Origin: Escherichia coli
GTDB lineage: Bacteria; Pseudomonadota; Gammaproteobacteria; Enterobacterales; Enterobacteriaceae
Reading direction: 5' to 3' (one strand)
Assembly (NCBI RefSeq): GCF_003334305.1
Contig: NZ_QOWS01000003.1
Length of the DNA: 64,000 nucleotides
Part shown: positions 14,073-15,699 of the stretch, piece by piece
How the letters are laid out: the number at the start of each line of letters is the position of its first letter
How positions within the stretch are numbered: the first letter of the stretch is position 1
Made by a program: the position numbers and the translations under genes
The notes under the pieces: generated by a model
What the model was told of the DNA's origin: nothing
The model's input: only the letters and a program-made list of their open reading frames with translations
Database searches by the model: none

Positions 14073-15699
14073 GTGCACTGGCAAACTCACACCGTTTTTA
14101 ATCAACCTATACCATTAAATAACAGTAACTTATACCTGTCTGATGGCGCGCTCTGCGAAGCGGTAACGCGTGAAGGTGCTGGCTGGGATAGCGATTTTCT
14201 AGCCAGTATTGGTCAGCAGTTAGGAACGGCTGAATCCCTTGAACTGGGGCGGCTGGCGAATGTGAATCCGCCTGAATTATTGCGCTACGATGCGCAAGGA
14301 CGCCGTCTGGACGATGTGCGTTTTCACCCCGCCTGGCACCTGCTGATGCAGGCGCTATGTACCAATCGGGTGCACAATCTTGCCTGGGAAGAAGACGCTC
14401 GCTCCGGCGCATTTGTGGCGCGCGCGGCGCGTTTTATGTTGCACGCACAGGTTGAGGGCAGGGTCGTTATGTCCGATAACCATGACCTTTGCCGCCACGC
14501 CATTGCTGTTACAGATGTTACCCGCGCCGTTTCAGGACTGGACCACGCCGCTGCTGAGCGATCGCTACGATTCTCACTTATTGCCAGGTGGGCAAAAACG
14601 CGGTTTGTTGATTGGCATGGGAATGACGGAAAAGCAGGGCGGTTCCGATGTCATGAGCAACACCACCCGCGCAGAGCGCCTGGAAGATGGCTCTTATCGG
14701 CTGGTGGGGCATAAATGGTTTTTCTCGGTGCCGCAAAGCGATGCGCATCTGGTGCTGGCGCAGACTACGGGCGGTTTGTCCTGCTTTTTTGTGCCGCGCT
14801 TTTTGCCTGACGGGCAACGCAACGCGATTCGCCTCGAGCGGCTGAAAGATAAGCTGGGTAATCGCTCTAACGCCAGCTGCGAAGTGGAGTTTCAGGATGC
14901 CATTGGCTGGTTGTTGGGGCAGGAAGGGGAAGGAATTCGTCTGATCCTGAAAATGGGTGGGATGACGCGTTTTGATTGCGCCCTGGGTAGCCATGCCATG
15001 ATGCGCCGTGCATTTTCGCTGGCGATTTATCATGCACATCAACGCCATGTTTTTGGTAATCCATTGATCCAACAGCCCCTTATGCGTCATGTCTTAAGTC
15101 GCATGGCACTTCAGCTTGAAGGGCAAACGGCGTTGCTGTTTCGTCTTGCGCGAGCGTGGGACCGGCGTGCCGATGCCAAAGAAGCCCTGTGGGCGCGTTT
15201 ATTTACGCCTGCGGCAAAATTTGTGATCTGCAAAAGAGGTATGCCGTTTGTGGCCGAAGCGATGGAGGTGCTGGGCGGCATTGGTTATTGCGAGGAGAGC
15301 GAGCTGCCGCGGCTTTACCGGGAGATGCCGGTAAACAGTATTTGGGAAGGTTCCGGCAATATTATGTGCCTGGATGTGCTGCGCGTTCTCAATAAGCAAG
15401 CGGGCGTATACGACTTATTGTCGGAAGCGTTTGTGGAAGTGAAAGGGCAGGATCGCTATTTTGATCGCGCGGTTCGTCGTTTACAGCAGCAGCTGCGCAA
15501 GCCAGCTGAAGAATTGGGGCGAGAGATTACTCATCAGCTATTCCTGCTGGGATGCGGTGCGCAAATGTTGAAATATGCCTCTCCGCCAATGGCACAGGCG
15601 TGGTGTCAGGTGATGTTAGATACGCGCGGCGGCGTACGGTTGTCAGAGCAGATCCAGAATGATTTATTGCTGCGGGCGACGGGGGGAGTGTGTGTGTAA
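14073..15699 (+). pseudogene. aidB: aidB (acyl-CoA-dehydrogenase-family alkylation-response protein) disrupted by a +1 frameshift
   Basis: AidB-like sequence is split between frame-0 ORF 14055-14714 (N-terminal ~128 aa up to ...FMLHAQVE) and frame-1 ORF 14380-15699 (...AGSLCPITMTF to C-terminus); the shift lies in the GGG run at 14457-14459. Confidence 0.8.

Follow-up and report, generated by a model that had tools for sequence, protein, structure and literature searches.

The alkylation-response gene aidB of Escherichia coli strain A7 is interrupted by one additional G, and we estimate a probability of roughly 0.88 that this GG>GGG change at codon 128/129 is a genuine recent insertion, carried by a small clonal lineage to which A7 belongs, that would make aidB a pseudogene. 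The window, i.e., the whole 64-kb stretch of DNA that was analyzed, corresponds base for base to positions 485043-549042 of the chromosome of A7 (NZ_CP028767.1), a strain from orangutan faeces, USA. The genuine mutation is favored because the same insertion is present in two other assemblies, because no other indel was found in 50 kb compared with close relatives and because no other pseudogene was found in 164 kb. Of these three indirect tests, the evidence from other assemblies weighs most.

The frameshift and its predicted product

Within the window, aidB extends from the GTG at 14073 to the TAA ending at 15699. Its neighbors, yjfC and yjfN/bsmA, occur in the same order in A7, 07-4299, H15, strain 41 and WL164. 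The locus contains the following features:

13991..14003, + strand: putative Ada-binding motif in the aidB promoter (A box AAT, 6 nt, B box GCAA: AATGTTTTAGCAA), intact, found by pattern search
14058..15699, + strand: RefSeq/PGAP pseudogene aidB, AOY58_RS02290, annotated as 'frameshifted'
14073..14456, + strand: 5′ part of aidB in the native frame, GTG start and codons 1-128 (...HAQVE), based on the CDS start of relatives, translation and the match to NF008594 positions 1-129
14456..14458, + strand: GGG run (GG in relatives), whose additional nucleotide causes a +1 frameshift after codon 128, based on alignments to L002, L005, L006 and L007
14458..15699, + strand: 3′ part of aidB in the native frame after the shift, codons 129-541 and TAA, intact; the repaired translation equals AidB of H15
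14712..14714, + strand: premature TAA in the shifted frame, from the ORF list and translation
15552, + strand: Gly493 GGC>GGA, synonymous, the second aidB change of the A7 lineage, from alignments to relatives

A sequence-only reading had described aidB as split over two ORFs, and both are found in the ORF list, one at 14055-14714 (frame 0, 219 aa), holding AidB residues 1-128 (...FMLHAQVE), and one at 14380-15699 (frame 1, 439 aa), which picks up at AGSLCPITMTF.... The switch had been placed at GAG GGC AGG G within 14451-14460, and the G run at 14456-14458 lies inside this interval, with GTT GAG GGC AGG GTC as the codons around the junction. The proposed cause, an extra G, is borne out by the alignments and by the comparison with close relatives that had been suggested as a check, which gives GG in the relatives and GGG in the window; the designation of the site as a homopolymer was overstated, as the wild-type run consists of two Gs.

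Aligned with the 07-4299 orthologue, aidB exhibits a single gap (one G in the run) and a single substitution, at 15552. Deletion of one G in silico yielded a 1626-nt ORF starting at GTG 14073, and its product is identical to AidB of H15 (WP_001299244.1) and exactly 541 aa long, the single ORF that had been predicted to be restored by GG at this site. There is no further disabling change in the 3′ part of the gene, its sole other difference from the relatives being synonymous, which suggests that the event is recent. In comparison with intact orthologues, A7 aidB therefore shows what is expected of a pseudogene, an indel whose length cannot be divided by three (+1 G) and a premature stop codon (TAA at 14712). 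The PGAP annotation lets the pseudogene begin at ATG 14058 and intact orthologues start at GTG 14073 (MHWQTH...), which is an annotation inconsistency only.

Translation from the normal start gives 213 aa, made up of 128 native and 85 out-of-frame residues, before the TAA at 14712-14714 is reached. The frameshift is located inside the AidB_N domain; intact homologues possess the Pfam domains AidB_N, Acyl-CoA_dh_M and Acyl-CoA_dh_1, the latter two of which are missing from the 213-aa peptide together with the C-terminal region. We compared both versions of the protein with NCBIfam NF008594, the AidB/isovaleryl-CoA dehydrogenase equivalog with 540 positions and a curated cutoff of 545 bits. The 213-aa product as encoded matched positions 1-129 only (E=1e-81, 274.8 bits) and did not reach this cutoff, which applies to whole proteins over the full model, whereas the repaired 541-aa protein scored 1181.6 bits over positions 1-540 of 540. 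Because the product as encoded falls below the cutoff and the repaired one above it, the locus is an aidB gene by descent that does not encode a member protein. The repaired protein also matches the AidB structures PDB 3DJL and 3U33 end to end (3DJL over 1-541), and the profile match and the match to 3DJL jointly confirm the AidB identity assigned in the sequence-only reading. In exact protein look-ups, no match was obtained for any of three candidate products of the N-terminal part (213, 218 and 219 aa), nor for the 439-aa ORF starting at TTG; the 405-aa ORF starting at Met137 and shorter C-terminal forms are on record.

Rarity of the allele and evidence against an assembly error

AidB is encoded by a core gene in E. 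coli, as a match covering ≥80% of the aidB query in one place was obtained in 5,424 of 5,426 complete genomes. The exact 66-mer with GGG, centered on the site, was found in one of these 5,426 genomes, namely, A7 itself, and the other 3,783 complete genomes that matched the 66-mer query were one base shorter or more divergent at the site, none having GGG. A scan of JGI metagenome contigs with a 35-mer containing GGG returned no hits, so the allele is very rare. Among the matches listed, the GGG allele is carried by at least three assemblies, A7, QOWS01 and JAGMHB01. The draft contig QOWS01000003.1 (GCA_003334305.1, 323 kb), which was retrieved by a look-up with the RNase R variant of A7, matches 16,393 bp of the window with 100% identity, and this stretch contains GGG as well as both SNPs that distinguish A7 from its relatives in this region. 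The second contig, JAGMHB010000003.1 (GCA_022976775.1, 322 kb), was retrieved via contigs encoding the 405-aa Met137 ORF and aligned with window positions 7482-22699 without a gap and with two substitutions; it has GGG as well, together with the ancestral bases at 8315 and 15552.

The indel is therefore reproduced at the level of assemblies, in JAGMHB010000003.1 on a distinct haplotype. A literature search found no paper on either draft. QOWS01 may derive from A7 itself, conceivably from one and the same set of reads, so the independence of this evidence lies mainly in JAGMHB01, which is two SNPs away from A7 in 15 kb. The haplotypes form a nested series, from the ancestral state to +G (JAGMHB01) and on to +G with 8315 T and 15552 A (A7 and QOWS01). 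Since GGG is present in JAGMHB01 without either of the two A7 SNPs, the insertion came first and the two SNPs later, and such a nested series fits an inherited mutation and not an assembly artefact.

The two SNPs deserve a separate remark. The A at 15552 is restricted to A7 among the 5,426 complete genomes; it is common to the draft assembly QOWS01 and absent from JAGMHB01. Two of the three differences of the A7 lineage in 50 kb are thus located in the 1.6-kb aidB gene, which is probably due to chance (about 6% given the first). Position 8315 belongs to codon 622 of rnr and leads to an R622C substitution in RNase R of A7 (TGT, where the three closest genomes have CGT). Lineages that are more distant and have an intact aidB (L019-L022) also encode this 813-aa RNase R protein, indicating that the variant recurs or is exchanged between lineages. 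Furthermore, the rnr, flgK, mfd, hcaD and yphG proteins of A7 have near-consecutive RefSeq accessions (WP_0973438xx, WP_0973439xx), which suggests that a single earlier assembly of the clone was the first source of all these strain-specific variants in RefSeq.

That the strain truly has GG and an intact aidB, the extra G being a consensus error of the A7 assembly, is an explanation that has to be weighed, since long-read assemblies typically err by single-base indels and the GGG allele is a singleton among the 5,426 complete genomes. A second A7-only difference, at 15552, lies in the same 1.6-kb gene and could hint at a locally poor consensus, and a literature search found no publication for the A7 assembly. 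However, the A at 15552 is reproduced in QOWS01, and the extra G is also present in both draft assemblies, which have another contig structure (323 kb and 322 kb) and one of which is a different haplotype. Moreover, an error-prone consensus would fail first in long runs and not in the two Gs of the wild-type site. In the first 50 kb of the window, compared with H15, strain 41 and WL164 as the three closest complete genomes, we found 3-5 substitutions and a single indel, the G in aidB, and the lengths of all 184 homopolymers of at least 5 nt, 54 of them of at least 6 nt, agreed with those in the three relatives (184 of 184 free of error), which speaks against an error. Nor was any other frameshifted gene found: of the 66 CDS that RefSeq annotates in the window, aidB alone is a pseudogene, two further 50-kb samples of the A7 record contained none among 95 CDS, and the total sampled is one pseudogene, aidB, among 161 CDS over 164 kb. 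We therefore regard a consensus error as unlikely, and where the sequence-only reading had left the choice between a genuine mutation and a sequencing error, the other assemblies, the single indel in 50 kb and the single pseudogene in 164 kb favor the former.

Elsewhere in the window, between rplI and a LysM-like gene, at 27059-36830, there is a cluster comprising a TRAP transporter, a FAD-dependent oxidoreductase, a CoA-transferase, an enoyl-CoA hydratase, a sugar-phosphate isomerase, a ketoacyl reductase and a TetR regulator, which looks like an accessory catabolic island. In H15, the gene for the large permease of the TRAP transporter contains an IS3 element (at window position ~29260), which A7, strain 41 and WL164 do not have at this position.

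Could AidB still be made from the shifted gene?

A genuine insertion might be bypassed at the level of translation. Rare AGG codons promote +1 shifts, and a +1 shift at the AGG in GAG GGC AGG GUC, that is, at GGC|A|GGG, would restore the native frame and yield full-length AidB with one residue substituted (A129G). As a case of translational recoding, this is hardly credible: 5,425 of 5,426 genomes have the unshifted gene, so the site is not conserved and does not represent a programmed signal, and by inspection, peptidyl-tRNA-Gly on GGC cannot re-pair on GCA, and a Shine-Dalgarno-like stimulator of the prfB type is absent upstream. A programmed ribosomal frameshift of the prfB, dnaX or IS3 type was rejected, the configuration occurring in one of 5,426 genomes and the intact 541-aa AidB being the norm; with poor re-pairing from GGC to GCA and no Shine-Dalgarno-like element, the rare AGG is the only suggestive element of such a site. 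Read-through, if it occurs, would be a by-product, probably at a level far below 1%. It is very improbable, though slightly less so, that an incidental +1 shift at a hungry AGG provides a low level of full-length AidB(A129G), in which case the pseudogene would be leaky rather than null.

A split gene, in which the N-terminal peptide and a C-terminal product starting at Met137 (ATG 14482, 405 aa) jointly provide AidB function, appears equally far-fetched. The 405-aa ORF is open from ATG 14482, keeps Acyl-CoA_dh_M and Acyl-CoA_dh_1 and has been annotated as a gene by gene callers in other assemblies. However, there is no Shine-Dalgarno sequence upstream of this ATG (GTCGTTATGTCCGATAACC), and the upstream frame stops only at 14714, which makes termination-reinitiation at 14482 impossible. 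The split product would lack residues 129-136, with AidB_N cut at residue 128, and in the 66-mer search of complete genomes, the split was conserved nowhere else. Phase variation was rejected too, as the tract measures 2 nt in the wild type and 3 nt in the A7 lineage compared with ~7 nt or more expected of a contingency locus, and length variation of the tract, scored as the GGG version, was seen in none of the 3,783 other complete genomes matching the 66-mer.

Origin, consequences and comparison with other aidB loci

The reading we prefer thus remains a recent inactivating insertion. Its simplest origin would be slippage in the short GG run. Alternatively, the extra G may have been templated from the adjacent AGGG by quasi-repeat correction; the insertion turns AGG-C-AGGG into the perfect repeat AGGG-C-AGGG. 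In either case, the additional G shifts the frame after codon 128 and leads to the TAA 85 codons further on, and we infer that the resulting 213-aa peptide is non-functional and that the strain lacks AidB activity.

The promoter region is preserved. The region upstream of the gene (13990-14072) is identical to that of H15 and strain 41, both with intact aidB, and contains the putative Ada box at 13991-14003, assigned by its match to the A-box/B-box definition (PMC4437013). With the promoter and the Ada box intact, transcription should still respond to methylated Ada, and the message would encode the truncated peptide. A polar effect on neighboring genes was rejected, since aidB is monocistronic and the downstream yjfN is located on the opposite strand. 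According to a review (PMC4437013), the aidB mutant does not differ from the wild type in MMS sensitivity, effects being confined to low doses, and the substrate of AidB is unconfirmed. Loss of the gene would accordingly be tolerated, mutants having at most mild phenotypes.

Two further natural disruptions of aidB were found in Logan contigs. In L010 (SRR35833257), a +C insertion (TC>TCC) at window position ~14465 follows the A7 site at a distance of eight bases; this lineage is ~0.7% divergent from A7, with 92 mismatches to the window over the 13.7 kb that they share. In L009 (SRR10997364), which has 87 mismatches to the window in the shared 8.2 kb, a Mu-like prophage is inserted into aidB ~15 bases downstream of the frameshift site of A7, with its end adjoining window position ~14472. 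This prophage encodes Mu transposase A/B, Gam and Kil, and its end sequence is ...CGTACTTCAAGTGAATCAATACA. The three disruptions fall within 17 nt, but a hotspot at codons 128-133 was rejected as an ascertainment effect, because the search with the Met137 ORF retrieves only disruptions just upstream of Met137. Together, these cases show repeated loss of aidB in nature. Less exotic than a leaky pseudogene would be a mildly adaptive effect of losing aidB in gut commensals, with which the independent +C and Mu disruptions would agree.

The loss of aidB in A7 is a recent, lineage-restricted and ordinary event in a non-essential gene of the Ada regulon, for which a pseudogene flag is already public, and the frameshift opens no new mechanism or question. 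What is new beyond the RefSeq/PGAP flag is the evidence from other assemblies that the frameshift is probably biological and not an assembly error. As a marker of a small clone within E. coli, one can use the GGG allele and the two later changes, rnr R622C and aidB 15552 C>A. Furthermore, a core gene of the Ada regulon, the function of which is still unclear, can apparently be lost in natural commensals, which agrees with the weak phenotype of aidB mutants in the laboratory.

Among the known systems, AOY58_RS02290 in NZ_CP028767.1 is the very same feature as the aidB gene of the window, and its public pseudogene call is silent on the reality of the frameshift. The intact AidB of E. coli (K-12 type; 3DJL/3U33; WP_001299244.1) is encoded at the same locus between yjfC and yjfN, behind the same Ada-box promoter, by a coding sequence that equals that of A7 except for the one inserted G and one synonymous SNP. 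In A7, by contrast, the frame is broken after codon 128, and the normal start gives a 213-aa peptide with 128 native residues. L009 and L010 resemble A7 in that the same gene has been inactivated, independently in each case, and the same 405-aa Met137 ORF has been left, whereas the mutations and the lineages differ.
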